The notes: generated from the sequence alone by a model not told the origin. 64,000 nucleotides of DNA from an uncultured Candidatus Saccharibacteria bacterium (GCA_964399295.1 CAYNQD010000001.1:86454-150453); one strand, 5' to 3'; numbered from the stretch's first letter, positions 27,424 through 43,632 are shown. Numbers and translations are program-made.

Positions 27424-27924
27424 TTAGCTCGGATTTAGAGCGGTCTTAACCTTATCGGCTAACTCTTGAGAATTAAATGCTCCGTGGTTCTGTATTCTCA
27501 AAAGAGGCATGCCTGCACCCTTAAGAATACGCTCAACTTCCTGGTCCCGATCTTGTCTGTCGGGACGGTCGTGCGATTTGTCATCAAGCTCAATAGCCAA
27601 CTTCGGAGAAATGTAAGCCTTATCGCAAAGAACAAAATCTACAGACTTCTGGCTTACATGCCTGAAAGCGGCTCTCCAGTTTTGACCTACCACTTTGTGC
27701 TCGAGGAGTGTTGGCAGATGCACTTGAGCAAAGATTATGTAATCTTGACCGACAGCTTGAGCTAAAGCGTCATAGAACTCATGCTCTGCTTTAGTAAGAA
27801 ACCAGTTGCGGCGTTTATAGTCATACTTCGGCTTTTCATCTTGGATGTCGAACCCTCCCTTTAAAAGTCCTGCGACTATACCGGCAACGATAATTATTCC
27901 GATAAGTATGTAAATTAATGTCAT
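27424..27924 (-). CDS. Membrane-anchored DUF2726-like (restriction-endonuclease-fold) protein
   Basis: N-terminal TM helix (LIYILIGIIIVAGIVAGLL). The remainder resembles the DUF2726/NERD-like nuclease-related fold (FVLCDKAYISPKLAIELDDKSH). Confidence 0.35.
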   Translation of the reverse strand: MTLIYILIGIIIVAGIVAGLLKGGFDIQDEKPKYDYKRRNWFLTKAEHEFYDALAQAVGQDYIIFAQVHLPTLLEHKVVGQNWRAAFRHVSQKSVDFVLCDKAYISPKLAIELDDKSHDRPDRQDRDQEVERILKGAGMPLLRIQNHGAFNSQELADKVKTALNPS

Positions 27925-27975
27925 GGTGTTTATATTTTAACAAAATATGAATTTATTTACATTGACTCCCGTTGA

Positions 27976-28485
27976 TTACTTCTTTGGCCTGTCTCCCTTC
28001 AACAATCTCTCAAACGCCTCAAGGTTACCCATGGCATCATGAACTGGATGATGATCGTGCTTTGTTATGCGCAATCTTTTCCAAGATGATGCATCCTTGA
28101 AGTCTCCGATTAAGCCAGCATAAAAGTCGCCGATTCTGCGAGCGGAATATCCGAATGGATTCTTGCCAAGCGTTCGATGAAAGCTGTCATTGATCCATTG
28201 CCAGTCAAAAGCCGGATTATCACTGACAAATTTAGGTCTTTCTTCACCACATATCTCTTTCAACCACGCATCAAAATTTTCAAATACCTCTTTTTCATCA
28301 AAGACTATACCCGTCGCTATTTTGAACTCAGGATTTTCGGGGTCCGGCTTTCTTTCAACCAACACTCCATGAAAAGTAGCTTTTGATGGATATGCGACCG
28401 CACCAAATTCAGTGAGCTGTCCCATGCTCGGACACTTCCCGTTTGCCTCACAGTCTACAAATATTAAATTCTTTAAATCTTCCAT
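27976..28485 (-). CDS. DEDDh-family 3'-5' exonuclease (DnaQ/RNase T-like)
   Basis: FVDCEANG (Exo I D-x-E) and HDHHPVHDAMGN (Exo III H-x4-D). 169 aa. Confidence 0.6.
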   Translation of the reverse strand: MEDLKNLIFVDCEANGKCPSMGQLTEFGAVAYPSKATFHGVLVERKPDPENPEFKIATGIVFDEKEVFENFDAWLKEICGEERPKFVSDNPAFDWQWINDSFHRTLGKNPFGYSARRIGDFYAGLIGDFKDASSWKRLRITKHDHHPVHDAMGNLEAFERLLKGDRPKK

Positions 28486-28568: not shown

Positions 28569-28886
28569 GTGGAAGAAGACATGGATGAGGTCCGCAAAGC
28601 CGCAGAACAAGTGAGGTTTCCGTTCAACCGATACGAGATACTGAATCGGCTTTCCTCTCTTCCGGAACCAAAGGCAAAAATGAAGAAAGCTCTCAAAGAT
28701 AGGATGAGGCACTTAGCGGCCGCTTATGTCTCACTGGCCACTTTTGTTGACGATGAAGACATAGAATTTTCATTTAAATACAAGAAAAGCCGGAAAACAC
28801 GAGCAATTTACCTTAAGGTGATCAAGAATATTAAAAAGGCGCAAAAAGAAATGTGGCAATTCAAGCCCCTAGAGCATATTCAATAA
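28569..28886 (+). CDS. Hypothetical small basic protein
   Basis: 105-aa ORF, no recognisable motif. Directly upstream of the MTase gene. Confidence 0.3.
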   Translation: MEEDMDEVRKAAEQVRFPFNRYEILNRLSSLPEPKAKMKKALKDRMRHLAAAYVSLATFVDDEDIEFSFKYKKSRKTRAIYLKVIKNIKKAQKEMWQFKPLEHIQ

Positions 28887-28895
28887 TTTTCTGTT

Positions 28896-30917
28896 TTGAA
28901 ACAAAAAAATTTAAGGTATAATTGTCTTAACGCTATGCAAACCTCAATCTTAAAAAACAAACAAATAGATTTAGAGGGTGCAGTCTCACTCTTGGGTGTT
29001 TCTTCTGCTACGGTAAGAAATTGGATAAGACATGATTATCTTGTCCCTGACAACAAGGAAGGTAGAAAGCTTCTGTTTGATCATGACCATGTTAGAGATT
29101 TAAAAGAGAAAATAGATTCGGGCGTAATAGACCGTTTGAACAAACGGGCAAACAAAAAGGGGTCTATAAATACGTTTATACCTGATGAATATACGGACAA
29201 CATCGATGTAATTTTATTTGTAGAAAAAATTATCGACCAAAATGTTGAGAATCAACTCGATCGTGACAGTATTCTTCTCTCGGTCGCTCTTAATCTGCTC
29301 AAAAAACAGCAATTGATTACATATACGGATACACTTTCAAAACTTTCCTACAAAAATAAAATTATAAAAGACGAACTAGCTTGGTGGCTGAATAAAACCC
29401 AGAGGAGCTTTTCTTTTGATAAGTATTCGCATCTCTTAAATATTCAATTACCCGAGGCTGGTGACTTATTGGGAGTCGTATATCAATCACTTGTGGCCGA
29501 AGGTAGTAAAGCTCAAGCAGGTTCTTATTACACCCCAAAAAGTGTAGTTGATGAAATCATTAATAGTCACATACAAAATGATTCACTAGTTCTTGATCCC
29601 TGCTGTGGAACAGGCCAATTTCTCTTGTCTGCAGCATCTAAGGTCAAAAATCCTAGAAACATATGGGGCTTTGACATAGATGAAACGGCTACAAGATTAG
29701 CTCGCTTAAATTTGCTAATAAAGTTTCCAGATGAAGAATTTTCACCAAATATATACCACAAGAATACCTTGCTCCATGTTCAATCGGGGGGGCTATTTGC
29801 TGACGATATCCCGAATTTTGATGTAGTTATCACAAATCCACCTTGGGGGGTCCATTTTTCTCAACACGAGACTGATCAACTTCAAGGTATATATCCATCC
29901 ATTCAATCAAATGAGTCTTTTTCGTATTTTCTCAATAAGGGATTAAGCCTTCTCAAAGACGGTGGAATATTGTCGTTTATCCTTCCTGAGTCAATCCTCA
30001 ATATAAAGACTCATCGAGATATAAGAGAAGTAATATTGAACACGTCAAAAATCCAAAAAATTAAGTTCTTGGACCGAGTATTTAAAAATGTTTTTACACC
30101 TGTAATAAGACTTGATGTAGTTAAAACTAGCCCAGCAGATGAGCATACTTTTGAAGCTGAAAAGTATGAGGATATTTTAAGAGTTGATCAGTCGAGATTA
30201 AAAAAGAATCATGACTATATTTTTGATGTATTTTCTAACGGTAGTGATATGGTTATCATCGACAAGGTGTATAGCCTTGAACATGTAACCCTAGAAAATA
30301 ATGCAGAATGGGCGTTAGGAATAGTGACTGGTGATAATAAAAAATATCTAAAAGAAAGAGAGACATCAGACAGCGAACCCATTATTACAGGCAAAGATGT
30401 CAAGAGATTTATAACCTGTAAGCCAAAAAACTTTATTAGGTTTGATATTGAGAAGTTTCAACAGGTTGCTCCAGAATATAAATACCGTACCGAGGAAAAA
30501 TTGATTTATAAATTTATATCGAAAGACCTTGTTTTCTCTTATGACAACAAAAAGACTCTAACTCTCAATAGTGCGAATATTCTTATACCTAAAATAGCTG
30601 GGTATCCTGTAAGGACCATACTAGCACTGTTCAACTCGAGTCTGTATCAGTTTGTGCATCAGAAAAAGTTCGCTTCGATAAAGGTTTTAAGAAGTGATAT
30701 TGAAAAGCTACCTTTGCCTACACTAAACAATAACCAACATCATGAAATAATTTCTCTGGTTGACAAGCTTCTTGATGAGGAAATTTCATCTGAGCAAAGG
30801 AAAGAAAAATATGTGGAGCTCGATAATCTGATTATGGACATCTTCTCCCTAAATGAGGACCAAAAAGCACATGTCGTGTCAAATGTGAAGATTTCTGATA
30901 AACTATTATCCGTATAA
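28896..30917 (+). CDS. N6-adenine DNA methyltransferase, gamma-class Eco57I family, with N-terminal excisionase-type HTH and C-terminal target-recognition region
   Basis: VSSATVRNWIRHDYLVP (HTH_17-like), GSYYTPKSVV, LDPCCGTGQFLL (motif I), VVITNPPWG (motif IV NPPW). 673 aa. Confidence 0.75.
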   Translation: MKQKNLRYNCLNAMQTSILKNKQIDLEGAVSLLGVSSATVRNWIRHDYLVPDNKEGRKLLFDHDHVRDLKEKIDSGVIDRLNKRANKKGSINTFIPDEYTDNIDVILFVEKIIDQNVENQLDRDSILLSVALNLLKKQQLITYTDTLSKLSYKNKIIKDELAWWLNKTQRSFSFDKYSHLLNIQLPEAGDLLGVVYQSLVAEGSKAQAGSYYTPKSVVDEIINSHIQNDSLVLDPCCGTGQFLLSAASKVKNPRNIWGFDIDETATRLARLNLLIKFPDEEFSPNIYHKNTLLHVQSGGLFADDIPNFDVVITNPPWGVHFSQHETDQLQGIYPSIQSNESFSYFLNKGLSLLKDGGILSFILPESILNIKTHRDIREVILNTSKIQKIKFLDRVFKNVFTPVIRLDVVKTSPADEHTFEAEKYEDILRVDQSRLKKNHDYIFDVFSNGSDMVIIDKVYSLEHVTLENNAEWALGIVTGDNKKYLKERETSDSEPIITGKDVKRFITCKPKNFIRFDIEKFQQVAPEYKYRTEEKLIYKFISKDLVFSYDNKKTLTLNSANILIPKIAGYPVRTILALFNSSLYQFVHQKKFASIKVLRSDIEKLPLPTLNNNQHHEIISLVDKLLDEEISSEQRKEKYVELDNLIMDIFSLNEDQKAHVVSNVKISDKLLSV

Positions 30918-30924
30918 TAAATAT

Positions 30925-31665
30925 ATGGATCCCCTTAAAGAAAAGCTAAATAAGCTCGTGGATGGGCTTTCTGCAGATAAAAAGGAAATAATTAAGACTA
31001 GACTTTCAAATCTCGTTTCGGTTTATCCTTTTAATGAATACGAATATATAATTTCTACCTTGTTAGGCTATAGGAAAATTACCATTGACGATTATAACCA
31101 GATTAGAGATGAATATATTGCTAAGAATATATACCTTAATATTTTCGAAATAGGATCGCCGAGGGGATTTGGTGAGCTATGGGCACAAGGACATCTTAAA
31201 GAGCTTGTACCTGAACTCGTAAAACCTACAAAGAAAATCGAAGAGAACTATAAAGGTGACTACGATTTTATATTACCTGGACAAGACCATCTTGTTCGAA
31301 TTGAGGTAAAAGCCTCAAGAGCTGTAGATGGTGATAGTGCAGAGCCTTTATATGTTAAAGCTTTGGCGTTCGACAGTAAGCAACCTTTCTGGATGAATTT
31401 TCAACAAATTAAACCGGCACACTGTGATGTATTTGTCTGGATTGCTGTGTGGCGTGATGTGATCAAGTATTGGGTCCTATCTTCCGACGAAGTAAAGAAT
31501 AATAAGTACTACTCAAAAGGTCAGCACCGAGGAAATGTTGGTGAAGGACAATTACATCTCAAAGATGACAATATCAAAGATTTTCAAATTTATGAGGTAA
31601 AAGCTGCTGAACTTAAAGATGCCATCGTGAGAGCTTATGAACGTCAAAAAAGTTCAAACGGATAA
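30925..31665 (+). CDS. Putative PD-(D/E)xK restriction endonuclease (cognate of upstream MTase)
   Basis: DYDFILPGQDHLVRIEVKASR gives D...E-V-K spacing typical of PD-(D/E)xK. Starts 7 nt after the MTase stop. Confidence 0.4.
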   Translation: MDPLKEKLNKLVDGLSADKKEIIKTRLSNLVSVYPFNEYEYIISTLLGYRKITIDDYNQIRDEYIAKNIYLNIFEIGSPRGFGELWAQGHLKELVPELVKPTKKIEENYKGDYDFILPGQDHLVRIEVKASRAVDGDSAEPLYVKALAFDSKQPFWMNFQQIKPAHCDVFVWIAVWRDVIKYWVLSSDEVKNNKYYSKGQHRGNVGEGQLHLKDDNIKDFQIYEVKAAELKDAIVRAYERQKSSNG

Positions 31666-31757
31666 GGCTATTTAGCCCCTAAATGCCCCTGTGTACGCTT
31701 TTCTGGCCCCATTCGGGGCTTCTTGCGTATATGCCAGATTTCGCCAACTTTTTAGAG

Positions 31758-31830
31758 GGTCCAAAGTAATTCCTACTCTTAGAAATCTAGGAGGTCCTAA
31801 AATCACAAGCATTGTAGGCCCAAAAGTAAT
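31758..31830. repeat. Three direct imperfect 13-14-nt iteron-like repeats
   Basis: gggtccaaagtaat (31758-31771), aggtcctaaaatca (31792-31805), aggcccaaaagtaat (31816-31830). Consensus GG(T/C)CC(A/T)AAAGTAAT. Confidence 0.5.
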
Positions 31831-31960
31831 GCAACACGTTTTTCACTTTTTGGAGCCGACAATGTAAATATTCCCGTTGCACGGAAAAAGCTGGACCACT
31901 TGCAACGGGGGTCTAGCTTTTTCCGTTTTCAGGAAGAACTACGCAAGGTCGAAACCCCTC

Positions 31961-32230
31961 ATGATAAGCAAACACGCATTCGAAGAATACAAGCAGATAC
32001 ACCGAGAAGAAATCGGCAAGGCTTTTTCCGATGATGTGCTTTTCGATGAGGCAACTAATCTGCTTACGCTCTTTGATCGCGTCTATCGGCCGATCAAGAA
32101 AGCGTGGCTCAAGGAATATGGACAACGAACAAGAGATAACTCCGATATGGCGAAACGAAAGACCGAGGTCGCCAGCCAGGATGGCTCTCAACGCAAATCA
32201 GAAAAACGCAAATCTGAAAAAGCAGATTGA
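31961..32230 (+). CDS. Hypothetical small protein (island sub-element)
   Basis: Likely start ATG at 31961 (MISKHAFEEY...). The track ORF from 31877 translates the upstream hairpins. Overlaps the next gene out of frame by about 50 nt. Confidence 0.3.
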   Translation: MISKHAFEEYKQIHREEIGKAFSDDVLFDEATNLLTLFDRVYRPIKKAWLKEYGQRTRDNSDMAKRKTEVASQDGSQRKSEKRKSEKAD

Positions 32231-33029
32231 TCAGATGGACAAGTCAAAGCTTCGGACCAAGCGCAAGCCGAGCAGATTCTTTGTCGAAAACGAATACGTG
32301 CATGGCGGATATGTAGCCATACTTCCTAACGCATGCTCAAGAATCTATTACGTTCTCTCGGTCCATTGTAATAACGAAACACAAGTGGCATTCCCGAGCA
32401 TCACGACTATTCAAGAGATGTCAGGCTGTACCAATCGCAACACGACCATGAAGGCTCTCTCCATACTTGAGTCGTATGGCATCATCGGAATCCTCAAGAC
32501 CAAAGGATTCAATATGGTGAATGTGTACGCCTTTCAAGCCACTCGATACTGGAAACCGATCCCTGAATGGAAAGAAAGGATGGAGAAATACAGAAACAAA
32601 TCGCAGTATCAATTCACCCCACATCGTAGTAACAAAAAGACCGACTATCGCAGTGACAGGGATGATACCCTAACTAACCTAAGTGATAACTCTCCTAATA
32701 CTATAACTAGCATCGGAGATGTCTTAAGAAAAATGCAGTTGCAGGGACCCGATTCGGTTGCTATTCAGGAGCCTTCTGGGCATAGTGTCGTCGGTCCAGC
32801 TAAGCATGAACTTTTACCCGTAATAACGGGTAATTTACGGGAACATCGTAATAACACCAGTGATACTACGATAGACCAAGAAAGCACCGTTAATAAACGG
32901 GAAGAAACGGTGGACACAGTCGAAAGTGCACCATTTATAAATGGAGAAAAATGGACTAAGGAAGATGAGGGCATTGGTCTGATGGACATCAACAATGAAG
33001 ACATCGGGCCAGGAAACGCAACATTATAA
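32181..33029 (+). CDS. Putative winged-helix DNA-binding protein (replication initiator/regulator of mobile element)
   Basis: HGGYVAILPNACSRIYYVLSVHCNNETQVAFPSITTIQEMSGCTNRNTTMKALSILESYGIIG resembles wHTH replication-initiator/regulator N-termini. Likely start at 32181 (MALNANQ). Confidence 0.3.
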   Translation: MALNANQKNANLKKQIDQMDKSKLRTKRKPSRFFVENEYVHGGYVAILPNACSRIYYVLSVHCNNETQVAFPSITTIQEMSGCTNRNTTMKALSILESYGIIGILKTKGFNMVNVYAFQATRYWKPIPEWKERMEKYRNKSQYQFTPHRSNKKTDYRSDRDDTLTNLSDNSPNTITSIGDVLRKMQLQGPDSVAIQEPSGHSVVGPAKHELLPVITGNLREHRNNTSDTTIDQESTVNKREETVDTVESAPFINGEKWTKEDEGIGLMDINNEDIGPGNATL

Positions 33030-33033
33030 AACT

Positions 33034-34707
33034 ATGAATAAAACACCACCAATCAAATACTTCCTCTACGCCCGCAAGTCGAGCGAAGCGGAAGACAGAC
33101 AGGCGGCATCCATCGATGCCCAAAAAGACGAGCTCCTGAAGATTGCCAAAGAGCAGGGCTTGGCAATCGTAGACGTTCTTGAGGAATCGCAATCGGCCAA
33201 GAAGCCAGGCAGACCAATCTTCAACAAAATGCTCGAACGAATTTACAAGGGCGAGGCCAACGGCATCATCTGCTGGAAATTGGATCGTCTCGCTCGCAAT
33301 CCGGTAGACGGCGGACAGATAAGCTGGATGCTCCAGCAAAGCGCCATCGCAGAGATCATCACCTTCGGCCGAACCTACTATCCGACCGACAACGTCCTCA
33401 TGATGCAAGTTGAACTTGGCATGGCCAACCAATATATTCGAGACTTATCAGTGAATGTAAAAAGAGGCTTGGCCAAGAAAGTCCGAGAAGGTTGGCTCCC
33501 GAGCATGTGTCCCGTCGGCTACATGAGCACTCCTGACAGAGAAAAGGGATTTAAGACTATCACCAAAGACCCCGACCGCTTTCCAATCGTGCGGCGCATC
33601 TTTGACCTCATGCTCACCGGCAACTACACGGTCCAACAGATATGGAATATCTCACGCAAAGAACTCAATCTCACCACTTTCAAACGCCGAAGCCTCGGCG
33701 GCAAACATCTCTCAAAGAGCGGCATGTATGCGCTCCTGAGCAATCCCTTTTACTACGGTTGGTTTGAGTATCCGTACAAAAGCGGAGAATGGCACAAAGG
33801 CTCACATGAGCCGATGATCACCGAAGACGAATTCAACAAGGTCCAGCAATACATGGGCAGAAAGAACAGACCGTCGCTCGCCAAGAACCTCAACTTCGCA
33901 TTTACCGGCCTCATGCATTGCGGCACCTGCGGTTGCGGCATCACCGCCCAAGCGAAAGTAAAGCGATGTAAGAATGGCAATGTCCACCACTACGTCTACT
34001 ACAATTGCACCAAGAAGAAAGTAGATGTGAAGTGTCCCGAGCAATGTATCGAGCTCAAGAACCTCGAACTGGATATCAAAGGCAAACTCAGCGAAATCAC
34101 CATTTCAGAGCGATTCAAGGATTGGGCGATCAAGCATCTGCATGAACTTCGCAAGACCGAGGCTGATAGCGACTCGGCGGTACTCAAAGGCAAGAACAAA
34201 GAGCTTGAGGAAATCACCAAGAAACTGCAATCGCTCACCCTCAATTTCACCTCGCCGGCCAATCAGGAGCGCACTCTCATTTCAGACGAGGAGTACCAGA
34301 ATTTGAAGATGGGCATGGTCCGAAGAAAGCTCAAGCTCGAAGACGAGCTCAAGGTGCAGAACAAGGAGATCTTGGAATGGGTGGAGCTGTCGGAACGGAC
34401 CTTTGACTTTGCCTGCTACGCCCACATCTGGTTTGAAAAAGGCGATGAAAAGACCAAGCGAGCCATCCTTTCATGCCTTGGCTCGAACCTCACTCTAAAG
34501 GGCAAAAAAGTCTTTGTAAATTACCATTCTTTCGTGAAGACACTCATAAAAAGTCGTCAGGCGGTTGAAGACGAATTAGAGAAGGTTAGAACCTCTAAAG
34601 TATCAAGCAATAAAAGACAAAACCCTACAAATTGTGAGGTTTCGTCACTAGGGCTCCCCGTCTCGAGTTGGGGACTTTTGCCGCCTTGCCCCGCAATGCT
34701 TTTTTGA
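33034..34707 (+). CDS. Large serine recombinase (resolvase/invertase N-domain plus recombinase domain plus Zn-ribbon)
   Basis: YFLYARKSSEAEDRQAASIDAQKDEL carries the catalytic Ser of Y-x-R-x-S. Cys cluster CGTCGCGITAQ...CTKKKVDVKCPEQC and coiled-coil C-terminus. The track ORF starts 32995, but internal Met 33034 is likely. Confidence 0.8.
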   Translation: MNKTPPIKYFLYARKSSEAEDRQAASIDAQKDELLKIAKEQGLAIVDVLEESQSAKKPGRPIFNKMLERIYKGEANGIICWKLDRLARNPVDGGQISWMLQQSAIAEIITFGRTYYPTDNVLMMQVELGMANQYIRDLSVNVKRGLAKKVREGWLPSMCPVGYMSTPDREKGFKTITKDPDRFPIVRRIFDLMLTGNYTVQQIWNISRKELNLTTFKRRSLGGKHLSKSGMYALLSNPFYYGWFEYPYKSGEWHKGSHEPMITEDEFNKVQQYMGRKNRPSLAKNLNFAFTGLMHCGTCGCGITAQAKVKRCKNGNVHHYVYYNCTKKKVDVKCPEQCIELKNLELDIKGKLSEITISERFKDWAIKHLHELRKTEADSDSAVLKGKNKELEEITKKLQSLTLNFTSPANQERTLISDEEYQNLKMGMVRRKLKLEDELKVQNKEILEWVELSERTFDFACYAHIWFEKGDEKTKRAILSCLGSNLTLKGKKVFVNYHSFVKTLIKSRQAVEDELEKVRTSKVSSNKRQNPTNCEVSSLGLPVSSWGLLPPCPAMLF

Positions 34708-34754: not shown

Positions 34755-35465
34755 CTACTTCTCTACATACTTTATTGGATTTTGACTGCCTTTCTTCCAA
34801 ATATGTGCGACGGATGTATTAAGATATTTTTCACGAATTTTAGATGGTGCGATAAAACCCTCAAATATATATCTCCCAGATACATCCTGAGAGGGTAGCC
34901 ACTTTTTTATGACATACACCTCACGAATGATTCCTGCATATACGGCGCAGGCTATTTTAAATGTTTTTGCACGAGCGCCGACTTTCCAATCCTTTCGCGT
35001 TACCTGATAAAGTTCTTCTTTGGACATGTCGTGTCTAAATGCTTTGTTGATGCGAATGAGTATCACGGGGTCATCAAATACTGCTGGTCGAGCCTGATAT
35101 TCTATCTCAATATCCCGCAAAGACATTTTTCCGCGCAAATAGGCATGATGACCTGTTACAAGATTGGTTAAATTATTCAATCCAAAATAATCGATCATTG
35201 CACTCTCTACTTCAAACGCCTCCTTTTCTTCCAGCCCGTGGCGCAAGACGATAAGCCCGACTTCGTGGCCAGCTTTCTGTATCTCACGAATAGTTTTTAT
35301 CTTCTCGGTTTCTTTTGTCTTTTCCTCAAGCGCCCCAAGCAAATGATGATTTATTCGATTGCCTTTTCCTTTACCAACATAGAAAACTTTTCCTGCCTGA
35401 GGGTTGATAAGAAAATAGACATAATATTTGAGCTTCTCTATAGTTGACTGTGATAGCCTACTCAT
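34755..35465 (-). CDS. GIY-YIG nuclease-domain protein
   Basis: YYVYFLINPQAGKVFYVGKGKGNRINHHL has the GIY...YIG catalytic-motif arrangement with Arg/His downstream. 236 aa. Confidence 0.55.
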   Translation of the reverse strand: MSRLSQSTIEKLKYYVYFLINPQAGKVFYVGKGKGNRINHHLLGALEEKTKETEKIKTIREIQKAGHEVGLIVLRHGLEEKEAFEVESAMIDYFGLNNLTNLVTGHHAYLRGKMSLRDIEIEYQARPAVFDDPVILIRINKAFRHDMSKEELYQVTRKDWKVGARAKTFKIACAVYAGIIREVYVIKKWLPSQDVSGRYIFEGFIAPSKIREKYLNTSVAHIWKKGSQNPIKYVEK

Positions 35466-35581
35466 GCTCCGCGGGATGGACGGGTTCAGAACTCTTGGTA
35501 AGCCAATTCAAGCAAGTAGATTGGTCACAAATTCAGAAAGAGTTAGCGTTTAGTGGAATTTTAAATAATTATTGTTTAGAA

Positions 35582-36859
35582 CTACGGTAGTCTTTTTACA
35601 AAGCTAAATAGTTCATTATCAGCTTCATTCAAATCTTCAGCTGTGATCAGTTCGCAAATTTTTGTAGCTAACTTTACTTTTGAAATAGCTATACCATTAT
35701 GACAGTTAGGATCATTAGATAAATAATCCTTAACAATCTCGGTCCTTGTCTGTGTTGAGTTAAAAATCGACTGAAGGTGTCTTTCTGGATAGTAATACTC
35801 TATAGCATCTTTGGTTAAAGTTAGGATATGATCATCCTTTCCAATCAATAATTTCCACTCTCTTTCCAGCGTGTCTTTCAAAGGATTGTCTACTATTACA
35901 TAAGTACGATCCTTATATACTGGAACATTTTTTTCATTAAATTTTAAAAAATTAGTGATTGAATTTATTGCGTATTTAACGCTTCCGTTTCCTCCAGAAT
36001 TATGTACACCAAAGCCAGATTTACCTAAGAGACTAAGAATTTTCTTGATAAAACTAGTATCAGAAGGTCCTTCGAATATAAGCACTTTTTCAGGTAATAA
36101 GTAACTTGCGAGAGTGTTTCCTAATAATCTAAATATAACATCATTCATCTGCTCAACAGGTTTTATTTCAATTTTATCGTCCCCGTTTCGTTGGCAAATA
36201 TAATTATTTGATGGATCTTCTAGATCTAGGAAATGATGAGAATGTGTAGCAATAAAGATTTTTTTCTTCGGTAAAGCCTTATCTTTAATTGCTTGAAATA
36301 AATACTTCTGTAAATACGGTTCCAGGCCAAGCTCTGGCTCATCGATACATAGATATTCAACTTCTGGGTCGAACAGTCTGATGAAAATCTCGATTGTCGC
36401 TCTCATCCCAGAACCCTGTTTTGTAATTGAGTATTTGTTTGCCTTTAGTAACATAGGCGACGCTGAATTGTCTACATCCTCTCGCTCTTCAATGAGGGGA
36501 TTAGGAAAATATTTGTTATACCATTCAATAATTGGCTCTCGGTCCTTATCCTTGAGACTAAAGAAATCTTGCAAAGGCTGAATTTGGCGACTTGAGTTAT
36601 CATCCTCTTGTTGCAGTGTTCGTGAATTGTATACTGGCAGGTTCTTTTTATAGTCTTCTTTCATAGACCCTTCGCCTGTTAGTAGAGTTCTATTCACTGG
36701 TACAACATAACTTTTTTGATCCTGAAAAGTTTTAGCTATACTTCGAAGAAGTGTTGATTTGCCACCATTGTTAGAGCCAACGAAAATGAAGAAATTTTTA
36801 TCATCAGGCAGGTTTATGTTTTGTGTAGCGAACTGTTTTTCTTTATCTTGTATTTCCAT
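35582..36859 (-). CDS. OLD-family-like ATP-dependent nuclease (ABC-type ATPase plus TOPRIM)
   Basis: Walker A FIFVGSNNGGKSTLL, Walker B LCIDEPELGLEP, H-loop IFIATHSHHF. The C-terminal VLIFEGPSDTSF ... YVIVDNPLKD is consistent with the TOPRIM E ... DxD. Confidence 0.55.
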   Translation of the reverse strand: MEIQDKEKQFATQNINLPDDKNFFIFVGSNNGGKSTLLRSIAKTFQDQKSYVVPVNRTLLTGEGSMKEDYKKNLPVYNSRTLQQEDDNSSRQIQPLQDFFSLKDKDREPIIEWYNKYFPNPLIEEREDVDNSASPMLLKANKYSITKQGSGMRATIEIFIRLFDPEVEYLCIDEPELGLEPYLQKYLFQAIKDKALPKKKIFIATHSHHFLDLEDPSNNYICQRNGDDKIEIKPVEQMNDVIFRLLGNTLASYLLPEKVLIFEGPSDTSFIKKILSLLGKSGFGVHNSGGNGSVKYAINSITNFLKFNEKNVPVYKDRTYVIVDNPLKDTLEREWKLLIGKDDHILTLTKDAIEYYYPERHLQSIFNSTQTRTEIVKDYLSNDPNCHNGIAISKVKLATKICELITAEDLNEADNELFSFVKRLP

Positions 36860-36908
36860 ATCTGTTAGAAGAATTATAAATTATTGTAAAGTATTGTAAA
36901 CTATAGTA

Positions 36909-37823
36909 ATGGATCCGATTACCATTACTCAAAAGGACGAACTCGCGCTATTTAAGCTTTCTGAACAAGGTCCGCTTGGGAAAAGAGCATTATTTATATT
37001 TCAGTATCTCTTCATACGTGCTGACTTCAGGGACCTTGTAAAAGAGTTACGTGCGGAATTTGATATACCACCAGAAGGTTTTGACTTATCTGACCATAGT
37101 CAAAGTGAAATCGTAAGACAGAAGTACGTTGACACGGGCGGTTTCTCAGGAGAGATGATTTTTACAGCTAGTTTTAGACTAGATCCAAAAATGTCACATC
37201 GTATTGATCAGTTTATCGAGCAGTGTGGAGTTGTGCAGTATTCGCCTAATATGGATCTTGCAGAAGGTTTTATCTCAGCAATTGTCCGAGAGTACATTCT
37301 CCTTAATGATTTTATCGGTCTCTACAAAAATCGTTTTGGTCTGATTACTGTAGAACAGTACGATGTTTATGATCGCGAGGATGAGAATTACAGCGAAAAA
37401 GATGTTGAACTTCGTTTCTCTATACCGATCTCTGTGAAGAGGGATGAATTTAAAGAGTATATTGATAATATTTGGGACGTTCTTGAAAGCTCAAGAAAGG
37501 ATTTTTTACGTAAACAAGACCAAGTTCGTTTTCGTCCGAGAAATAACTTTGTCCGTGATGTGCTTATTTTGAATAAGTACATAGAGCTTGAGAATTTACC
37601 GAAGTCCAAACAAACGGCTCGTGGTATAAACTATTTAGATGTAGCTACTAGAAAAGAGCTTATTGCAGAAGGTCATTTAGATATACCTGATGAGGGGTCA
37701 ATAAGAAGTATAGTGAGTAGATTAAAACGTGAAATTAAAGAGAAGAGTGCATATTGGGAAGAACGAGAACCTGATCCAGAACCCGATCCAAACTACAAAC
37801 CATCAGATAATGATGGCTTCTAG
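36909..37823 (+). CDS. Hypothetical protein (divergent from OLD-like gene), acidic EPDPEPDP tail
   Basis: 304-aa ORF with no recognisable motif. Divergently arranged 50 bp from the ATPase-TOPRIM gene start. Confidence 0.3.
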   Translation: MDPITITQKDELALFKLSEQGPLGKRALFIFQYLFIRADFRDLVKELRAEFDIPPEGFDLSDHSQSEIVRQKYVDTGGFSGEMIFTASFRLDPKMSHRIDQFIEQCGVVQYSPNMDLAEGFISAIVREYILLNDFIGLYKNRFGLITVEQYDVYDREDENYSEKDVELRFSIPISVKRDEFKEYIDNIWDVLESSRKDFLRKQDQVRFRPRNNFVRDVLILNKYIELENLPKSKQTARGINYLDVATRKELIAEGHLDIPDEGSIRSIVSRLKREIKEKSAYWEEREPDPEPDPNYKPSDNDGF

Positions 37824-38076
37824 CGTTTAAGCCCACTGCTTAAATGCAACAATGTGGCTTTTAAACTGAACTCTTAAATTCAGTATTTTACTTTTGCCTA
37901 CTGTAATAACGTATGAGCAACCTTCGGGTTGTTTATGAGTTGTTCAGACACACAAAAGATAAGTATCTCTGATATGACCTGTGAAGACAGGGGTCGACTT
38001 GTTAGTGCTTTTGAGTGGCTGATGAAGCAGGATAAAAAGCAAAATCCTGCTCTTTATCAGGAAAAATACAGGGAAA

Positions 38077-39207
38077 ATGATCGACACAGTATGTCTCCTC
38101 ATTCCGAAGGACAAGATGAAATTTATCGAAGGTGTGTCTAATTGGGAACTCTATTCACGTACAGACACCTATCAAAAGTTTGTACGGAACCCTTCAAAGA
38201 TCGAGAAGAATACGGGTAAGTATTTTCCAAGACTGACGGGCTATAAAAGACGCTTCGGAGATGATGCAAATGTACGCATTGAGTTCTCGGTCCCGAAACT
38301 GCTTTTACTAAATAATCTCGATGAAGTTACTGAAAGTGACTTCTCGAGAATAGTAAATGTTTTATACGACCGTCTAACCGAAATGGGCGTAGTTATTCCA
38401 AAATCAGAGCTTAAAAGTGCGAATGTTAGCTCCGTTCATTATTCAAAGAATATCGCCCTGACTAACGGGTATACTGCCAGCTATATCCTTTCGGAGATTA
38501 ACAAGATTGATCTTAGAAAGAGCTTTGATTTCTCGAAGGCACGCTTCACAAATGATGGTCAGAGTTTGTACATTCACACTACAAGTCATCAGTTCGTGCT
38601 CTATGACAAGATTGCTGATTTAGCTAAGGGCAAGAAGCGAGCTATCGATAAGGATCAGACAATATACCAGCGGTCCTTGTTTGAACAGATAGATCAATCA
38701 TCAACCGAGGTACTTAGGTTAGAAGTAAGGCTGAATAAGAAGCAGAAGTTGAAAGAAGTGTTAGCTAAGTTCGGTCAAAATCAAACTCCGATCTTCTCGG
38801 ATATTTTCTCAGAAAAAATAAGCAAAAAAATCGTAGTGGATTATTGGAATACACTTATTAAAGCCAACAATCTAGCAGTACTCTCTTTGGACCTCAAACC
38901 CAAAGACCTACTACAGCTATTAATCCGATCCGAGTTTAAGGCGAAGCCCAATCGACTGCTATATCTCATAGGTTTACATTGCCTTGCACGGGACGGAACT
39001 GGTACAAGGCAATTACGATCTGTGCTCGAGAAGAAGTCTAGTGATAGAAGTTGGTACCGTATCTCAAGTGACCTCAAACTTCTAGGTGAACTTATTTCTG
39101 ATGATTATCTGAGAGATTGGGTCAAACATATCGATCAAGCACTAAAAGATTACAAAACATTTAAAGTTAATGAATATGCAAAACCGATCGCATCAAAAGA
39201 CTTTTAA
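38077..39207 (+). CDS. Putative replication initiation protein (Rep_trans/rolling-circle-like)
   Basis: 376 aa. Mobile-element context. Candidate catalytic SSVHYSKN Tyr motif. Weak evidence overall. Confidence 0.25.
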   Translation: MIDTVCLLIPKDKMKFIEGVSNWELYSRTDTYQKFVRNPSKIEKNTGKYFPRLTGYKRRFGDDANVRIEFSVPKLLLLNNLDEVTESDFSRIVNVLYDRLTEMGVVIPKSELKSANVSSVHYSKNIALTNGYTASYILSEINKIDLRKSFDFSKARFTNDGQSLYIHTTSHQFVLYDKIADLAKGKKRAIDKDQTIYQRSLFEQIDQSSTEVLRLEVRLNKKQKLKEVLAKFGQNQTPIFSDIFSEKISKKIVVDYWNTLIKANNLAVLSLDLKPKDLLQLLIRSEFKAKPNRLLYLIGLHCLARDGTGTRQLRSVLEKKSSDRSWYRISSDLKLLGELISDDYLRDWVKHIDQALKDYKTFKVNEYAKPIASKDF

Positions 39208-39451
39208 CACTTCATTTCTTAATCGAGTAATTACGTATAAAGAGAAGCTCAAGGAAGTCGAGACATCTTCCATTGAAGAGGTGTTAGAAAACTTCTCAAA
39301 AGATCTATACCCAGAGCAAGAATTAATCGTGTGGGAAATGATTAGTTTACATTATGAAAATGGCACTTTGATGCACCCAGAATGGGACTTAACTGCCAAA
39401 AAAGAGCATTATAAGTCAGTATTCGCTCAATCTTTCGGTATCAACGGGTAG
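39170..39451 (+). CDS. Hypothetical small protein
   Basis: 93-aa ORF overlapping the end of the upstream gene. No motif found. Confidence 0.25.
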   Translation: MNMQNRSHQKTFNTSFLNRVITYKEKLKEVETSSIEEVLENFSKDLYPEQELIVWEMISLHYENGTLMHPEWDLTAKKEHYKSVFAQSFGING

Positions 39452-39493
39452 TTACTAGGGATGTAAAGAATAGTAAAGTATAATAAAACACAT

Positions 39494-39670
39494 ATGGAGG
39501 AAAAAGAATTTTACACAGCGCAAGAACTTGCTGAAATGTTACGTGTGAACATTATGACAGTCTATAGGTATATAGATGCAAAAAAACTCAACGCCTACAA
39601 GTTTGGAAAAGAGTATCGTATTGATAAGGTTGAGTTTAAAAGTTTTCTAGAAAAGGCAAAAACAAAGTGA
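39494..39670 (+). CDS. Excisionase-family HTH DNA-binding protein (HTH_17/MerR-like)
   Basis: 58-aa ORF below the track cutoff: MEEKEFYTAQELAEMLRVNIMTVYRYIDAKKLNAYKFGKEYRIDKVEFKSFLEKAKTK matches the Xis/HTH_17 pattern. Stops 4 nt before the Dcm start. Confidence 0.6.
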   Translation: MEEKEFYTAQELAEMLRVNIMTVYRYIDAKKLNAYKFGKEYRIDKVEFKSFLEKAKTK

Positions 39671-39673
39671 TAT

Positions 39674-40666
39674 ATGGCGAAACAAAAATTTACATTCATT
39701 GATCTATTTGCAGGAATTGGCGGTATTAGAATTGCATTTGATAATGTTGGCGGTAAGTGCGTTTTTACTTCTGAGATTGATGAGCAATGTCAGAAGATGT
39801 ATGAAAATTATTTTGGTGACAAGCCACACGGCGATATAACTAAAATTGATGCAAAGGATATTCCCGATCACGATATTCTAACTGGCGGTTTCCCTTGTCA
39901 GGCTTTCAGTATCATCGGTGGGATGAAGGGTTTTGCGGATACTAGAGGAACGCTTTTCTTCGATGTTGAGAGGATATTAAAAGAGAAGCGACCAAAAGCA
40001 TTTCTACTAGAGAATGTAAGAAATTTGACTGTGCACGATGGGGGTAGAACTTTTCAAACCATAAAAGATAGACTGCTCGATTTGGGTTATTTTGTGCACT
40101 ATAAAGTTCTTAACGGACTGGATTTTGGGGTTCCTCAAAAAAGAGAGCGAATAATGATTGTTGGTTTTGAAAAAAATTATCCCTTTGTCTTTCCTGATGG
40201 TTCTAAAGTGAAGAAAAAGTTATTAACTGATATTCTTGAAGACGAAAGTACGATTGACCCTAAGCACTTTGTCAGTGATTACGTTAAGCAAAACTTGCAA
40301 CAAAAGTTAATCGACCAAAATAAGCAGAGACCTGATTATCCAACTATTTGGCACGAAAATAAGTCAGGCAATATTGGTATTCACGAGTTTTCTTGTGCTT
40401 TGAGGGCTGGGGGTTCTTATAATTATTTGCTAGTTAATGGAACCCGAAGACCAACTCCTAGAGAGATGTTTCGGTTACAAGGTTTTCCAGATAATTACCC
40501 TATAATTGTTCCTTTAACCCAAGCTAGAAAGCAGGCTGGGAACGCTGTGGTTGTGCCAAAAATTCAAGCTGTTGCTGAAGCAATGATTGAAGCAATGTCA
40601 AAGAAACCTATTTCTTCATTAGATCAAGATGAAGTTTCCAATGTTGTCTTGGAGTTTAGTAAGTAA
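39674..40666 (+). CDS. DNA cytosine-5 methyltransferase
   Basis: FAGIGG (motif I), GFPCQAFS (motif IV, catalytic Cys), ENVRNL (motif VI), VPQKRER (motif VIII). 330 aa. Confidence 0.85.
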   Translation: MAKQKFTFIDLFAGIGGIRIAFDNVGGKCVFTSEIDEQCQKMYENYFGDKPHGDITKIDAKDIPDHDILTGGFPCQAFSIIGGMKGFADTRGTLFFDVERILKEKRPKAFLLENVRNLTVHDGGRTFQTIKDRLLDLGYFVHYKVLNGLDFGVPQKRERIMIVGFEKNYPFVFPDGSKVKKKLLTDILEDESTIDPKHFVSDYVKQNLQQKLIDQNKQRPDYPTIWHENKSGNIGIHEFSCALRAGGSYNYLLVNGTRRPTPREMFRLQGFPDNYPIIVPLTQARKQAGNAVVVPKIQAVAEAMIEAMSKKPISSLDQDEVSNVVLEFSK

Positions 40667-40679
40667 TAATTAATGAATT

Positions 40680-41723
40680 ATGCCCGAAGAGAAAAAAGCA
40701 CTTGATAGTTTGATTAAAAAGTCTAGAGTGCACTTTTACAAGCCAATTCAGATTGCAGAAATTCTGCATCATAAAAGGAATGGAGCCGACATCGAACTCT
40801 CGGATCTTGAACAGTATCGTAATATATCCAAAAGATGGCGAGACGAGGTCTCAACTCGACTAATCGGACGAAGAAGCACATCTAGTCAAAAGTATCAGGA
40901 TAATCTTTTTGAGAATAACGCTATTCCGCCAAACATCTTGGCGAAATTAGGTAGTGTAAATCAAGAAAGCGCAGGTGGCGTAGAAGCATATATTTACTAT
41001 ACGATGAAGGAGAAATTCTCAGAATTACATTCTGTTGCCACCTACATTGGAACTGCAACACCTGAGACATTTGACTTAGATGAAGTAGTAAATATTTTCA
41101 CAAGAACTGCAGGTTTAAAAAGAAGTATTGATAAGGTTTATGAAATCGCTGTTTATGCCTTGTTTGCGACTATTGTTAGGGCGTTGCGTGCAGAAATTAC
41201 GCTTGCTATTAAGAATGAGGACGAAGAAATCTTAGCTGACTTTAATACGTTTATAAAAAATGTTTTAGGGATTTCAGCAAACCAGACCCAGCTTACTGTA
41301 CCAGCTAACTTATATCGAGTAGGTGCTACAAATGCAGCAGATAGAGGCTTAGATATGTGGTCAAATTTTGGTCCTGTAGTGCAGGTTAAACACCTTACAA
41401 TCACTCCTGAAACTGTTGAGGATATAGCTGAGGGAATTGCGGCTGATAAAATAGTAATCGTCTGTCTTGATGCAGAAAGAGAAGCTATAGCGGTATTGTT
41501 GGCACAGGTTGGATGGGGTGAAAGAATTCAAGGTATCATAACTCTAAGTGATCTTCGAGAGTGGTATTTACTTTGTATGAGCGAAAAATACCGAGAAAAA
41601 TTAGGAGTTGCATTGCTTAGCGACTTACGAAGGGAGTTTGCAAATGAATTTCCTTCTGGAGCTGAATTAAACCCTTTTATTGCTGAAAGAAACTACCAGC
41701 AATCTTTCCCTGTAGGTTGGTAA
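40680..41723 (+). CDS. Putative type II restriction endonuclease (cognate of C5-MTase)
   Basis: 347-aa ORF 14 nt downstream of Dcm in the same orientation. No family-level motif recognised. Call is by operon context only. Confidence 0.35.
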   Translation: MPEEKKALDSLIKKSRVHFYKPIQIAEILHHKRNGADIELSDLEQYRNISKRWRDEVSTRLIGRRSTSSQKYQDNLFENNAIPPNILAKLGSVNQESAGGVEAYIYYTMKEKFSELHSVATYIGTATPETFDLDEVVNIFTRTAGLKRSIDKVYEIAVYALFATIVRALRAEITLAIKNEDEEILADFNTFIKNVLGISANQTQLTVPANLYRVGATNAADRGLDMWSNFGPVVQVKHLTITPETVEDIAEGIAADKIVIVCLDAEREAIAVLLAQVGWGERIQGIITLSDLREWYLLCMSEKYREKLGVALLSDLRREFANEFPSGAELNPFIAERNYQQSFPVGW

Positions 41724-41731
41724 GTTAAGTT

Positions 41732-43306
41732 ATGAAAGCAATAGTACTAGCTCGTGTATCTACTGAAGAACAACGTGAAGCTGGTAACTCATTGCCAGCA
41801 CAACAAGCGAGACTTATCTCTTACATTGAGAAATCATTCAGTAAGACAAACAATCAAAAATTAGTGCTCGAAAAAGAGTTCGTTTTTGACGAGAGTGCCT
41901 ATAAAGAGCATCGAAAAGAGTTTAATAAAATAACCGAGTACATTGAAGGTTTTAAAGAAACTGTAGCTCTTTGCTGTGATAAAGTTGACCGACTATCGAG
42001 AGACTTTTTAATCGGTCTGCCTGTGTTAGAGAGGTTGAGACGAGATGGAAAGATTGAGCTTCACTTTCCATCAGATAACTTAGTTCTACACCAAAATTCG
42101 CCTGCCACAGACCTTTTCCACTACAACATCGCCCTTGCTCTAGCCCAGTACTATTCAAACGCCATCAGTGATAATACTAAAAGAGCACTTGAACAAAAGC
42201 GAAGAAATGGAGAATGGACTGGTAAGGTACGTATAGGTTATTTGAACGTGTCGCTTGATGCTGAAAAACGCCTTCGAAAAGATATAATCATAGATCCGTT
42301 TAGAGGACCGCTTATTCAGAAGTTGTTTGAGCTGTATGCAACAGGCAACCATTCACTTGAAAGCGTTCGCTCCGAAATCATTAAACTTGGTTTGAGAAGT
42401 CTTGATGAAAATAAGCCTTCCAAAAGTAATATCGATCTAATTCTCAATGATCCTTTTTACTGTGGTATTGCTGTGTCGAAAAAGTACGGTAAGTTTGCTC
42501 ATCGCTATCCGAAACTAATTTCGAAAGAGCTTTTTGACCGATGCCAAGAAGTGCGAACTAAGAGAACCAATAACCGAAATAAGGTAGTCTCAAAGGATTT
42601 CATCTTCAAAGGGATGCTTAAATGTGCTAATTGTGGCTGTTCGATGAGTGCTGAAACGAAAGTAAAACCGAGTGGCAAATCCTATACGTATTATTCTTGC
42701 ACGAATGCCAAAAAAACCTGCAAAAAACAATACGTTACTGAGCAAGACCTCCTAAAGCCCATCTGGGACGTACTGGGACGTTTCGGAACGATTTCAGAGC
42801 AGGTACAGGCTGATCTAGTATCTGAGCTAAGAAAGACCACAGAAGCCGAAATTGAGTTCCATAAGGCACAATTAAACCGTATCCGAAATGAATACGAAGA
42901 ACTTAAGAAGAAGGACGATCGTTTGCTGGATGCTTATCTAGACCAGAGTATTACTAAAGATGTCTATGACAAAAAACATCAAGACTATGCTGACAAGCTC
43001 CAGCTCCTTGAGATAGAATTATCAGAGTACCGAAAAGCTGACTACGACTACCAAACAACCGTTGCTACAGTCATATCTTTGGCACGAAGAGCACAAGCCA
43101 TCTTCGATGGTTGTTCTGAAGTTGCTGAAAAGAGAGCGTTTTTGAATTTGATACTTCAGAACCCGACCGTAAACGGAAAAAAGCTAGATTTTACACTAGC
43201 TTCTCCGTTTAATTTGGTCCTTGATTTAGCTGACGTCTCTTCTGGCTCCGCAGGTAGGATTCGAACCTACGACCAATCGGTTAACAGCCGATTGCTCTAC
43301 CGCTGA
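41732..43306 (+). CDS. Large serine recombinase (second copy); 3' end overlaps tRNA-Asn
   Basis: MKAIVLARVSTEEQREAGNSLPAQQ resolvase motif with catalytic Ser. Cys cluster CANCGCSMSAETK...CTNAKKTCKKQ and coiled-coil. The last about 21 codons are read through the tRNA gene on the opposite strand. Confidence 0.8.
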   Translation: MKAIVLARVSTEEQREAGNSLPAQQARLISYIEKSFSKTNNQKLVLEKEFVFDESAYKEHRKEFNKITEYIEGFKETVALCCDKVDRLSRDFLIGLPVLERLRRDGKIELHFPSDNLVLHQNSPATDLFHYNIALALAQYYSNAISDNTKRALEQKRRNGEWTGKVRIGYLNVSLDAEKRLRKDIIIDPFRGPLIQKLFELYATGNHSLESVRSEIIKLGLRSLDENKPSKSNIDLILNDPFYCGIAVSKKYGKFAHRYPKLISKELFDRCQEVRTKRTNNRNKVVSKDFIFKGMLKCANCGCSMSAETKVKPSGKSYTYYSCTNAKKTCKKQYVTEQDLLKPIWDVLGRFGTISEQVQADLVSELRKTTEAEIEFHKAQLNRIRNEYEELKKKDDRLLDAYLDQSITKDVYDKKHQDYADKLQLLEIELSEYRKADYDYQTTVATVISLARRAQAIFDGCSEVAEKRAFLNLILQNPTVNGKKLDFTLASPFNLVLDLADVSSGSAGRIRTYDQSVNSRLLYR

Positions 43307-43317
43307 GCTACTGCGGA
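43243..43317 (-). tRNA. tRNA-Asn (anticodon GUU) with encoded CCA
   Basis: Minus-strand UCCGCAGUAGCUCAGCGGUAGAGCAAUCGGCUGUUAACCGAUUGGUCGUAGGUUCGAAUCCUACCUGCGGAGCCA. The 7-bp acceptor, D arm GCUC/GAGC, anticodon stem AUCGG/CCGAU with loop CUGUUAA, and T-arm GUAGG-UUCGAAU-CCUAC all form. Confidence 0.85.
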
Positions 43318-43478
43318 ATGTTTCTCTATTTCGTTTGTTTTGTTCTTGAACTTGAAGCTGATTAATTTGCTGATTCCTAATCAATCTAACCAATTCAGTC
43401 CAAGTGCTTGTATTGTACAGAAAAAAAATGATTATTCAACCTTTTCTGGTGGCTGTTTTGAAGGTTTGGTGTTGGTGG

Positions 43479-43539
43479 GGACAAATTGGCCATAAGGGGG
43501 CGGCAACGTAGTTGCCGCCCCCTTATGGCCAATTTGTCC
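43479..43539. repeat. Perfect 29-bp inverted repeat with 3-nt spacer
   Basis: ggacaaattggccataagggggcggcaac-gta-gttgccgcccccttatggccaatttgtcc. The arms are exact reverse complements. Confidence 0.8.
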
Positions 43540-43632
43540 TGTGCAAAACTCCAAAAAAACCAACAAAACAAAGAAAGTTTAATTTGTCCAAAAAGATAGT
43601 ATAATTAGGGAGTTATAAGTTAAAGATTTTCT

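Follow-up and report, generated by a model that had tools for sequence, protein, structure and literature searches.

The 64,000-nucleotide (nt) stretch of DNA analysed here (the window), which comes from an uncultured Candidatus Saccharibacteria bacterium (CAYNQD010000001.1:86454-150453), appears to contain a small non-viral mobile element of the Patescibacteria at about 35466-43251. The element carries a restriction-modification (RM) system as cargo and would have been inserted by its large serine recombinase (LSR) at the 3' end of a tRNA-Asn gene, a reading to which we give a probability of roughly 0.8. The initial annotation had seen the mobile unit in a block of four genes at 39494-43306, in which a recombinase moves RM genes as its cargo. 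The notion of cargo is borne out, since the genes in this position vary among relatives while the backbone stays. The proposed limits are not, because attL lies at 35466, which gives an element of 7.8 kb that also holds a Rep_trans-like gene, small genes and an ATPase. On the evidence of its ends the mobile unit is about 35466-43251, and not 39494-43306. Its features are as follows.

35466-35472, no strand: attL core GCTCCGC, the same 7 nt as in the tRNA-Asn acceptor 3' strand at attR.
35473-35580, plus: P' arm, GGGA-TGGACGGGTTCAGAAC...GATTGG...GTTTAGTGG, from the family P' motif match and alignment with the junctions of relatives.
35582-36859, minus: 425-aa ABC-type ATPase (AAA_15/AAA_21), similar to OLD/PARIS AriA/GajA/PtuA (Pfam, PADLOC).
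36876-36906, plus: second operator/promoter copy, GTAAAG-N4-GTAAA(G/C), directly 5' of the 304-aa gene.
36909-37823, plus: 304-aa protein, with a homolog in L052 alone among the loci compared.
37929-38141, plus: small conserved backbone open reading frame (ORF) of 70 aa (called as 55 aa in L002), overlapping the start of the 376-aa gene.
38077-39207, plus: 376-aa conserved backbone protein, Y176-D177-K178 invariant.
39170-39451, plus: 93-aa accessory ORF, found in 9 loci.
39459-39484, plus: promoter/operator of the operon that runs from the HTH_17 gene to the LSR gene (motif scan and alignment).
39494-39670, plus: HTH_17 (excisionase/MerR-like) backbone protein, 58 aa (Pfam, NCBIfam, PHROG).
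39674-40666, plus: C5 cytosine DNA methyltransferase (MTase), 330 aa, M subunit of a HaeII-like type II RM system.
40680-41723, plus: HaeII-family type II restriction endonuclease (REase), 347 aa (Pfam, PADLOC).
41732-43306, plus: LSR (integrase), 524 aa, its 3' end containing the P arm.
43245-43251, no strand: attR core GCTCCGC, in the acceptor stem and discriminator of tRNA-Asn.
43243-43317, minus: intact tRNA-Asn(GTT), the integration target (ARAGORN; Rfam, 75 bits).

That the recombinase ORF reads into the tRNA-Asn gene had been pointed out before; the overlap with the 3' part of that gene is 64 nt, and the final 21 codons of the ORF are the reverse complement of intact tRNA-Asn sequence. 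This overlap marks the attachment site, and the arrangement in which the LSR abuts a tRNA 3' end recurs in relatives. A scan with one genome per species gave 336 of these, and 80 loci were retrieved for comparison. In relatives, attL is made up of a brief copy of the tRNA 3' end with a conserved arm after it, (T)GGCTCC-N6-TGGACGAGTTCAGAAC..., and 33 conserved P' sites were found in the loci. The family P' motif occurs once in the window, at 35477-35492 (15/16 match, a single mismatch), and is preceded at the expected spacing and orientation by GCTCCGC at 35466-35472. The window has no second instance of the pattern of core, 6 nt and TGGAC, and the attL region can be aligned with the attL/attP junctions of relatives over about 110 nt. 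The two copies of GCTCCGC together with the P' arm delimit an element of about 35466-43251, which would form a 7,779-bp circle if excised. The anatomy of an LSR attachment site is complete, with a short shared core, a P arm in the 3' end of the LSR gene and a conserved P' arm. Furthermore, the GC content of the element is 37.7%, against 42.8% in the flanks.

Searches at attL with patterns of 29 nt, 18 nt and the T-loop revealed no displaced tRNA half, either in the window or among 50 relatives. This excludes the anticodon loop as the place of the crossover, which must therefore be at the extreme 3' end of the tRNA. Anatomy and comparison together indicate that the LSR inserted the element with a crossover within GCTCCGC, so that the tRNA stays intact, and that the ORF reads into the tRNA because the recombinase 3' end contains the P arm of attP. 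Around 39494-43306 no long direct repeats were found, and no att-like sequence was found near 39494.

The LSR contains the Pfam domains PF00239 (Resolvase), PF07508 (Recombinase) and PF13408 (Zn_ribbon_recom), and the catalytic region R8-V9-S10-T11 is invariant across the family alignment. More than 1,500 homologs were found, of which the best 120 are 58-77% identical and mostly from Patescibacteria. The C-termini of the homologs are conserved to ...SPFNLVLELADSPNWL, after which there are two types of tail. The first consists of translated tRNA 3' ends (W = TGG = CCA; QDSNLRP = T-arm), and the second is a conserved WLPLVDKFRTLNW.... A tRNA 3' end adjoins the LSR in at least 65 of the 80 loci, mostly that of tRNA-Asn. 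Of the 80, about 44 have an intact convergent tRNA-Asn at the end of the LSR ORF, 9 have a different tRNA there (His, Gln, Leu, Asp), and another 14 have a tRNA-like 3' half that stops in the anticodon loop. Adjacency of LSR and tRNA 3' end is in other words a family trait, which identifies the junction as the attachment site.

Downstream of some LSR genes, the tRNA-like halves had raised the idea of an attP made of a tRNA 3' half and unrelated sequence, which was rejected, as these are tRNA-Asn genes split by a group I intron. Rfam places such an intron directly downstream in 6 of the 8 loci without an ARAGORN tRNA call. The intron (RF00028, 52-94 bits) sits in the anticodon loop of tRNA-Asn in L004, L009, L020, L026, L028, L046 and L075, and intron-split tRNA-Asn genes, present in many Patescibacteria, are missed by ARAGORN. 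A separate observation concerns the left side of some relatives. In L042 (2409-2610), L012 (3783-4000), L044 (3248-3444), L075 (1517-1696), L015 and L043, 16-24 nt of the tRNA 3' end are found as a copy about 200 nt left of attL, and the copy in L042 includes 5 nt of the LSR P arm. Between this copy and attL, the plus strand has an inverted T-arm/acceptor-like copy and a terminator-like hairpin. Rfam gave no match for this stretch in relatives, and nothing alike is present in the window. In these six loci it could be the remnant of an old attR or a structured RNA. In L037, a LOOT RNA (RF03000, 69 bits) is located at 5470-5595 on the minus strand, about 1.9 kb left of the backbone and near the expected place of attL.

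Past the expected half-site, the P' arm shows coding constraint in the LSR frame: per-position entropy over codons 11-29 is 0.96, 0.70 and 1.40 for the first, second and third codon positions (Wilcoxon p about 1e-4), and 32% of codon differences are synonymous when read in the LSR frame, compared with 13% and 9% in the two alternative frames, the sequences having been picked by a short peptide motif that biases a few of the codons. The excised form of most members hence encodes an LSR lengthened by about 30 aa (...NWxxIKxELxFSGILxLFP), and integration swaps this tail for a handful of residues read from the tRNA. For the window's element, the excised form would give a reconstructed ORF of 545 aa (...DWSQIQKELAFSGIL...). 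The junction introduces a +1 shift and the P' arm carries a 23-nt insertion, yet the distal part of the extension, DWSQIQKELAFSGIL, is in frame. The change of isoform on integration may set the direction of recombination or limit the integrase after insertion.

Comparison of the window proteins with the 80 loci by tblastn separates the backbone from the cargo. Homologs of the 70-aa ORF were found in 38 loci, of the 376-aa protein in 61 (mostly 47-59% identity) and of the HTH_17 protein in 65 (60-75%). The C5 MTase has homologs in 15 loci and the HaeII REase in one (L049). Between the HTH_17 and LSR genes, 57 loci showed a slot of 0-3 tightly spaced plus-strand genes, and the first of these is a DNA MTase in about 41 of the 57 (N6/N4 in 20, C5 in 13, D12 in 4 and N6_Mtase in 4). 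Among the later slot genes are those for 14 type III Res (ResIII) proteins, together with REases from the HpaII, BpuJI, ThaI, TdeIII, AlwI, MvaI/BcnI, CfrBI and HaeII families. Among the relatives, nearly all of them Patescibacteria, type II, IIG and III systems thus occupy the slot, and it is empty in six loci (L032, L040, L065, L074, L076, L077). L049 has the nearest RM pair (78% and 73% identity, the latter for the REase) on a divergent backbone (37% for the Rep-like protein, 54% for the LSR), which indicates that cassettes have been exchanged between backbones. The slot of L042 holds homologs of the RM pair of the element that neighbours ours in the window. The ATPase sits in a second, variable cargo region beside attL, and in the equivalent position a circular relative, L088, has other minus-strand genes. 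Judged by this comparison the RM pair occupies a dedicated cargo slot, and its vehicle is the whole 7.8-kb element.

Circular forms of relatives were recovered. Contigs L088 and L089, from two samples, are each 9,436 nt long with a 30-nt terminal overlap, and they are exact rotations of one 9,406-bp circle with 0 mismatches. These rotations demonstrate that an excised form exists in relatives. The circle encodes small ORFs, a Rep-like protein, HTH_17, a 1,008-aa MmeI-like type IIG RM protein, an LSR and three minus-strand genes. The gene order matches that of integrated elements, and attP is located inside the LSR ORF, which spans it (TGGCTACC-CTTAGTGTACAAGTTCAGAAC) and ends ...WLPLVYKFRTLNWVSIMSDLQFSGF.... 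A third contig, L087, resembles this circle; it is 7,412 nt long with a 43-nt terminal overlap, and its RM system is of the Tsp45I type.

The 376-aa backbone protein has 1,255 homologs and was given no assignment by Pfam or PHROG. One of 36 family members has a Pfam Rep_trans match (E=0.0019), and the structure model of the protein resembles Rep_trans rolling-circle initiators; Foldseek and a profile search of PDB sequences were negative against the PDB. The protein is probably a Rep_trans-like rolling-circle replication initiator or relaxase. Rep_trans relatives act both as initiator and as relaxase in integrative and conjugative elements and in integrative and mobilizable elements (IMEs) of Firmicutes (PMC5704250).

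The slot of the window's element holds an RM pair of a familiar kind. The four plus-strand ORFs from 39494 to 43306 (39494-39670, 39674-40666, 40680-41723 and 41732-43306) have spacings of 3, 13 and 8 nt, exactly as first described, the REase gene lying 13 nt 3' of the M gene on the same strand. The MTase matches PF00145 (DNA_methylase) at 1e-91 over 300 of 330 residues and PADLOC MTase_II at 2.5e-117, and its translation shows the motifs FAGIGG, PCQ, ENV, QKRERI and GNAV. The 347-aa protein matches PF09554 (RE_HaeII) at 5e-127 over model positions 2-338 of 338 and PADLOC REase_II at 5.6e-116. The earlier proposal of a putative REase next to a C5 MTase is hence confirmed by a full-length HaeII-family enzyme paired with an intact MTase, and a 347-aa ORF unrelated to nucleases, which would have spoken against it, is not what the RE_HaeII match (5e-127) shows. 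The label Dcm fits as a name for the C5 superfamily; the enzyme itself is the M.HaeII-like partner of the REase. The RM system is in itself ordinary. From family membership, a HaeII-like specificity for RGCGCY is predicted. The region 35466-43251 contains 0 such sites, where roughly 3-4 would be expected in 7.8 kb, and the window contains 36. This gap is suggestive of self-avoidance within the element, as a weak and non-significant signal.

Upstream of the HTH_17 gene, most loci have TTGCnA-TGTAAAGnnnnGTAAAG-TATAAT (alignment consensus TTGCnATGTAAAGnnnnGTAAAGTATAAT). This conserved promoter, TTGCnA-TGTAAAG-N4-GTAAAG-TATAAT, is composed of a -35 element, a 17-nt spacer with GTAAAG repeats 10 nt apart, and a -10 box. 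In the window, the GTAAAG direct repeats at 39463-39468 and 39473-39478 adjoin the TATAAT -10 box at 39479-39484, and the -35 element is weak. Of 89 loci, 49 contain the exact 14-base motif, 47 of them once and L012 and L076 twice, almost always on the plus strand and 5' of the HTH_17 gene. The divergent ATPase gene has its best promoter-like site at a position that overlaps the second copy in the window (36886-36903, one mismatch).

The HTH_17 protein (Pfam, 6e-14) had been suggested to be a controller resembling the C proteins of RM systems. In the loose sense this stands, as it probably controls the operon that contains the RM genes; as a family assignment it fails, because the protein is an HTH_17 that 65 of 80 loci retain regardless of their cargo. 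It belongs to HTH_17 and not to Xre/HTH_3, the operator is a direct repeat with no palindromic C-box, and its conservation is independent of the RM cargo. It is, by these features, a backbone gene and not a canonical C protein. As HTH_17 is the sole dedicated DNA-binding protein of the backbone, we infer that it binds the GTAAAG repeats and represses both transcription units.

A role of HTH_17 as recombination directionality factor (RDF) is possible, and it is doubtful that this would be its chief function in place of transcriptional regulation. The family calls do point that way, with NCBIfam giving the excisionase model TIGR01764 and PHROG 66/2907 'excisionase and transcriptional regulator', and the gene is probably co-transcribed, and is co-conserved, with the recombinase. 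phiRv1, an element with a large serine integrase, appears to use a small Xis-type protein as RDF. Yet the GTAAAG repeats are found at promoters (39463, 36886) and not in att arms, L051 and L054 have Rep and LSR genes without an HTH_17 gene, and the known RDFs of large serine integrases usually bind the integrase and not DNA.

Taken as a regulator, HTH_17 fits into the following scheme. The backbone comprises the Rep_trans-like protein, one or two small ORFs, HTH_17 and the recombinase, with the HTH_17, M, R and recombinase genes probably forming one operon read from the conserved promoter. By binding the GTAAAG repeats, one helical turn apart, HTH_17 would repress this operon once the element is established, so that entry into a naive cell may give a burst of methylase, nuclease and integrase. 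The Rep_trans-like protein would drive rolling-circle replication and/or mobilisation of the excised circle. The RM pair could guard the host from phage and, as an addiction module, stabilise the element.

Several observations weigh against the reading of the element as a mobile unit. No excised circle and no empty attB of the window's element was among the contigs recovered with the exact flank proteins as query; the search yielded integrated forms or contigs that break in a palindrome at 43474-43543, and the contigs with this very element (L001, L002, L086) all have it integrated. The identity of attL and attR is merely 7 nt, the P' arm has a 23-nt insertion relative to most relatives, and the DNA left of attL is another element rather than pristine host. 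RGCGCY is not depleted within the window (36 sites against 41.2 +/- 6.6 expected), and both this specificity and the binding of HTH_17 to its repeats are themselves predictions.

Some of these facts also favour an alternative, namely that we are looking at a fixed, immobile remnant, with an inactive or idle recombinase and with the RM pair as resident host defence in an island. Every recovered contig is integrated, the attL core is short, the P' arm carries an insertion, and the array has signs of decay in a P-arm-like remnant at 35446-35465 and in a PD-T4-3 gene wedged between elements. Nevertheless, the backbone ORFs are all intact and the R8-S10 block is conserved. Moreover, the distal extension that spans attP is still in the LSR frame, GC content is still 5 points below that of the host, and relatives are found as circles. 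We consider such a remnant unlikely.

A prophage remnant or a phage satellite is very improbable. The LSR matches PHROG 95 'integrase', and P4-like satellites are small elements with integrase and replication genes that carry defence cargo. Against this, Pfam and PHROG gave no capsid, terminase or other virion genes in the 7.8-kb element or in the 9.4-kb circle, and IMG/VR yielded merely 2 weak matches in 2.9 million contigs, compared with 336 in species genomes. This near absence argues that the elements are not phages.

Least credible of all, and disfavoured already, is a self-contained cassette at 39494-43306 with the HTH_17 protein as the C protein of the RM system: the four genes are co-oriented and tightly spaced with a promoter/operator just 5' of HTH_17, and so probably form one transcription unit, and some type II MTases do have an N-terminal HTH_17 (for example the gene at 28896), but P' arm and core are found at 35466 and no att near 39494, the Rep-like gene and small ORFs always accompany HTH_17 and LSR in relatives and in the circle, and the gene, HTH_17 rather than Xre/HTH_3, is kept with an empty slot or an unrelated RM system.

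The mobile element of 7.8 kb has parallels in several known systems. In the cassette chromosomes SCC and ECC, the LSRs CcrAB or CcrC insert at the 3' end of rlmH, with short repeats, a circular intermediate, arrays and variable cargo (PMC6222049). The element shares with them an LSR as driver, the 3' end of a housekeeping gene that is kept functional, short direct repeats, a circle, tandem or composite arrays and variable cargo. Ccr models are also the best NCBIfam matches of its LSR, although the scores are far below the cut-offs (CcrC 77.5 bits against 900, CcrA 71 against 700). Further differences are the target (tRNA-Asn and not rlmH), the single recombinase gene, the much smaller size (7.8 kb), the fixed RM slot, the Rep_trans-like gene and the Patescibacteria host. 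Without Ccr orthology and the rlmH target, the element is not of the SCC type. Some serine-recombinase IMEs of Firmicutes carry a type II RM system for maintenance or as cargo and accrete in tandem at one site; these IMEs insert inside genes, which are thereby disrupted, and tRNA 3' ends are the niche of tyrosine recombinases (PMC5704250). The element resembles them in its small size, integration module, probable Rep_trans-type initiator or relaxase, type II RM system and tandem stacking, and differs in that the serine recombinases of its family act at tRNA 3' ends and that the likeness to Rep_trans is structural only. It would function like both SCC/ECC and serine-recombinase IMEs, and appears to be a member of neither. 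A large survey of LSRs, available as a preprint, nowhere mentions tRNA.

As in the tyrosine-integrase islands of Islander/TIGER, the target is a tRNA 3' end, the replaced bases are supplied by the element, the tRNA stays intact and elements stack at one tRNA. The recombinase is however unrelated, the shared core measures 7 nt here and reaches up to about 24 nt in some relatives, and there is no displaced tRNA half at attL. RM systems with C proteins are similar in having a small HTH gene directly 5' of M and R, probably co-transcribed and with a conserved operator in front. They differ from our element, where the protein is HTH_17 and not Xre, a direct repeat lies in the promoter spacer, and the gene is kept independently of the RM genes and heads the recombinase gene too. 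P2 prophages and P4-like satellites have defence hotspots, in which a conserved mobile backbone offers a fixed site for swapped defence systems. The element is unlike these in being without phage-related genes, in its almost exclusively RM cargo, and in its recombinase and host phylum. In mycobacteriophage BPs, attP lies inside the repressor gene and integration alters the C-terminus of the protein. An attP within coding sequence is common to both cases, and the gene split here would be that of the recombinase itself.

The element is part of a tandem array that also includes a PD-T4-3 gene and another serine-recombinase element (the second element), unrelated to the first. The features of this neighbourhood are listed below.

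28569-34707: second element, with an LSR of 570 aa at 32995-34707 that is 26% identical to the first.
28896-30917: 673-aa N6 MTase with a fused N-terminal HTH_17, of the second element's type II RM system.
30925-31665: 246-aa REase_II of the second element (4.5e-72).
32031-33029: HTH_36 replication-initiator-like gene of the second element.
34755-35465, minus: GIY-YIG gene, full-length PD-T4-3 match (2e-52), its start codon adjoining the attL core.

The 20 nt before the attL core (35446-35465) resemble the P arm of an LSR, and the GIY-YIG gene with this stretch may be the remnant of a third element. In L061, a relative of the second LSR (54% identity) ends exactly at an attL of the first type, which indicates that stacking of both types of element at tRNA-Asn recurs. 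Synteny of the left flank gave no result for the left border of the composite island. At 27424-28485 on the minus strand, between a TerC-like host gene and the second element, are genes for a DUF2726 protein (nuclease-like fold) and a DEDDh/Rv2179c-like exonuclease (PADLOC 'Effector', 8e-16), which may be further defence cargo or part of the second element. On the other side, a near-perfect 70-nt palindrome with a 20-bp GC-rich stem is located at 43474-43543, between tRNA-Asn and a glutaredoxin-like gene. Its Rfam matches are spurious and miRNA-like only, and the Logan contigs L083 and L084, from other samples, start inside it.

A literature search with incomplete coverage found no account of this element family, so that an earlier description is possible. 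The vehicle is apparently an undescribed, widespread serine-integrase element of the Patescibacteria that targets tRNA genes and has an RM slot. More tentatively, and with the balance somewhat against it, one may speculate that these elements form an undescribed class of rolling-circle integrative plasmids of the Patescibacteria that act as exchangeable 'RM cartridges', are a main route of RM swapping in the Candidate Phyla Radiation, and have an integrase split by attP with a switch of isoform.

Patescibacteria have tiny genomes and few CRISPR systems, and RM systems therefore probably make up a large share of their defence against phages. One vehicle with one slot carries HaeII-, HpaII-, HindIII-, AlwI- and MmeI-like as well as type III systems. 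Its presence in 336 species genomes, with more than 1,500 protein clusters, would help to explain the turnover of RM systems in this phylum. In recombinase biology and engineering, the family is a source of many natural serine integrases directed at a universal, conserved target, the tRNA 3' end. Furthermore, it provides a natural case of an integrase gene that is divided by its own attP.

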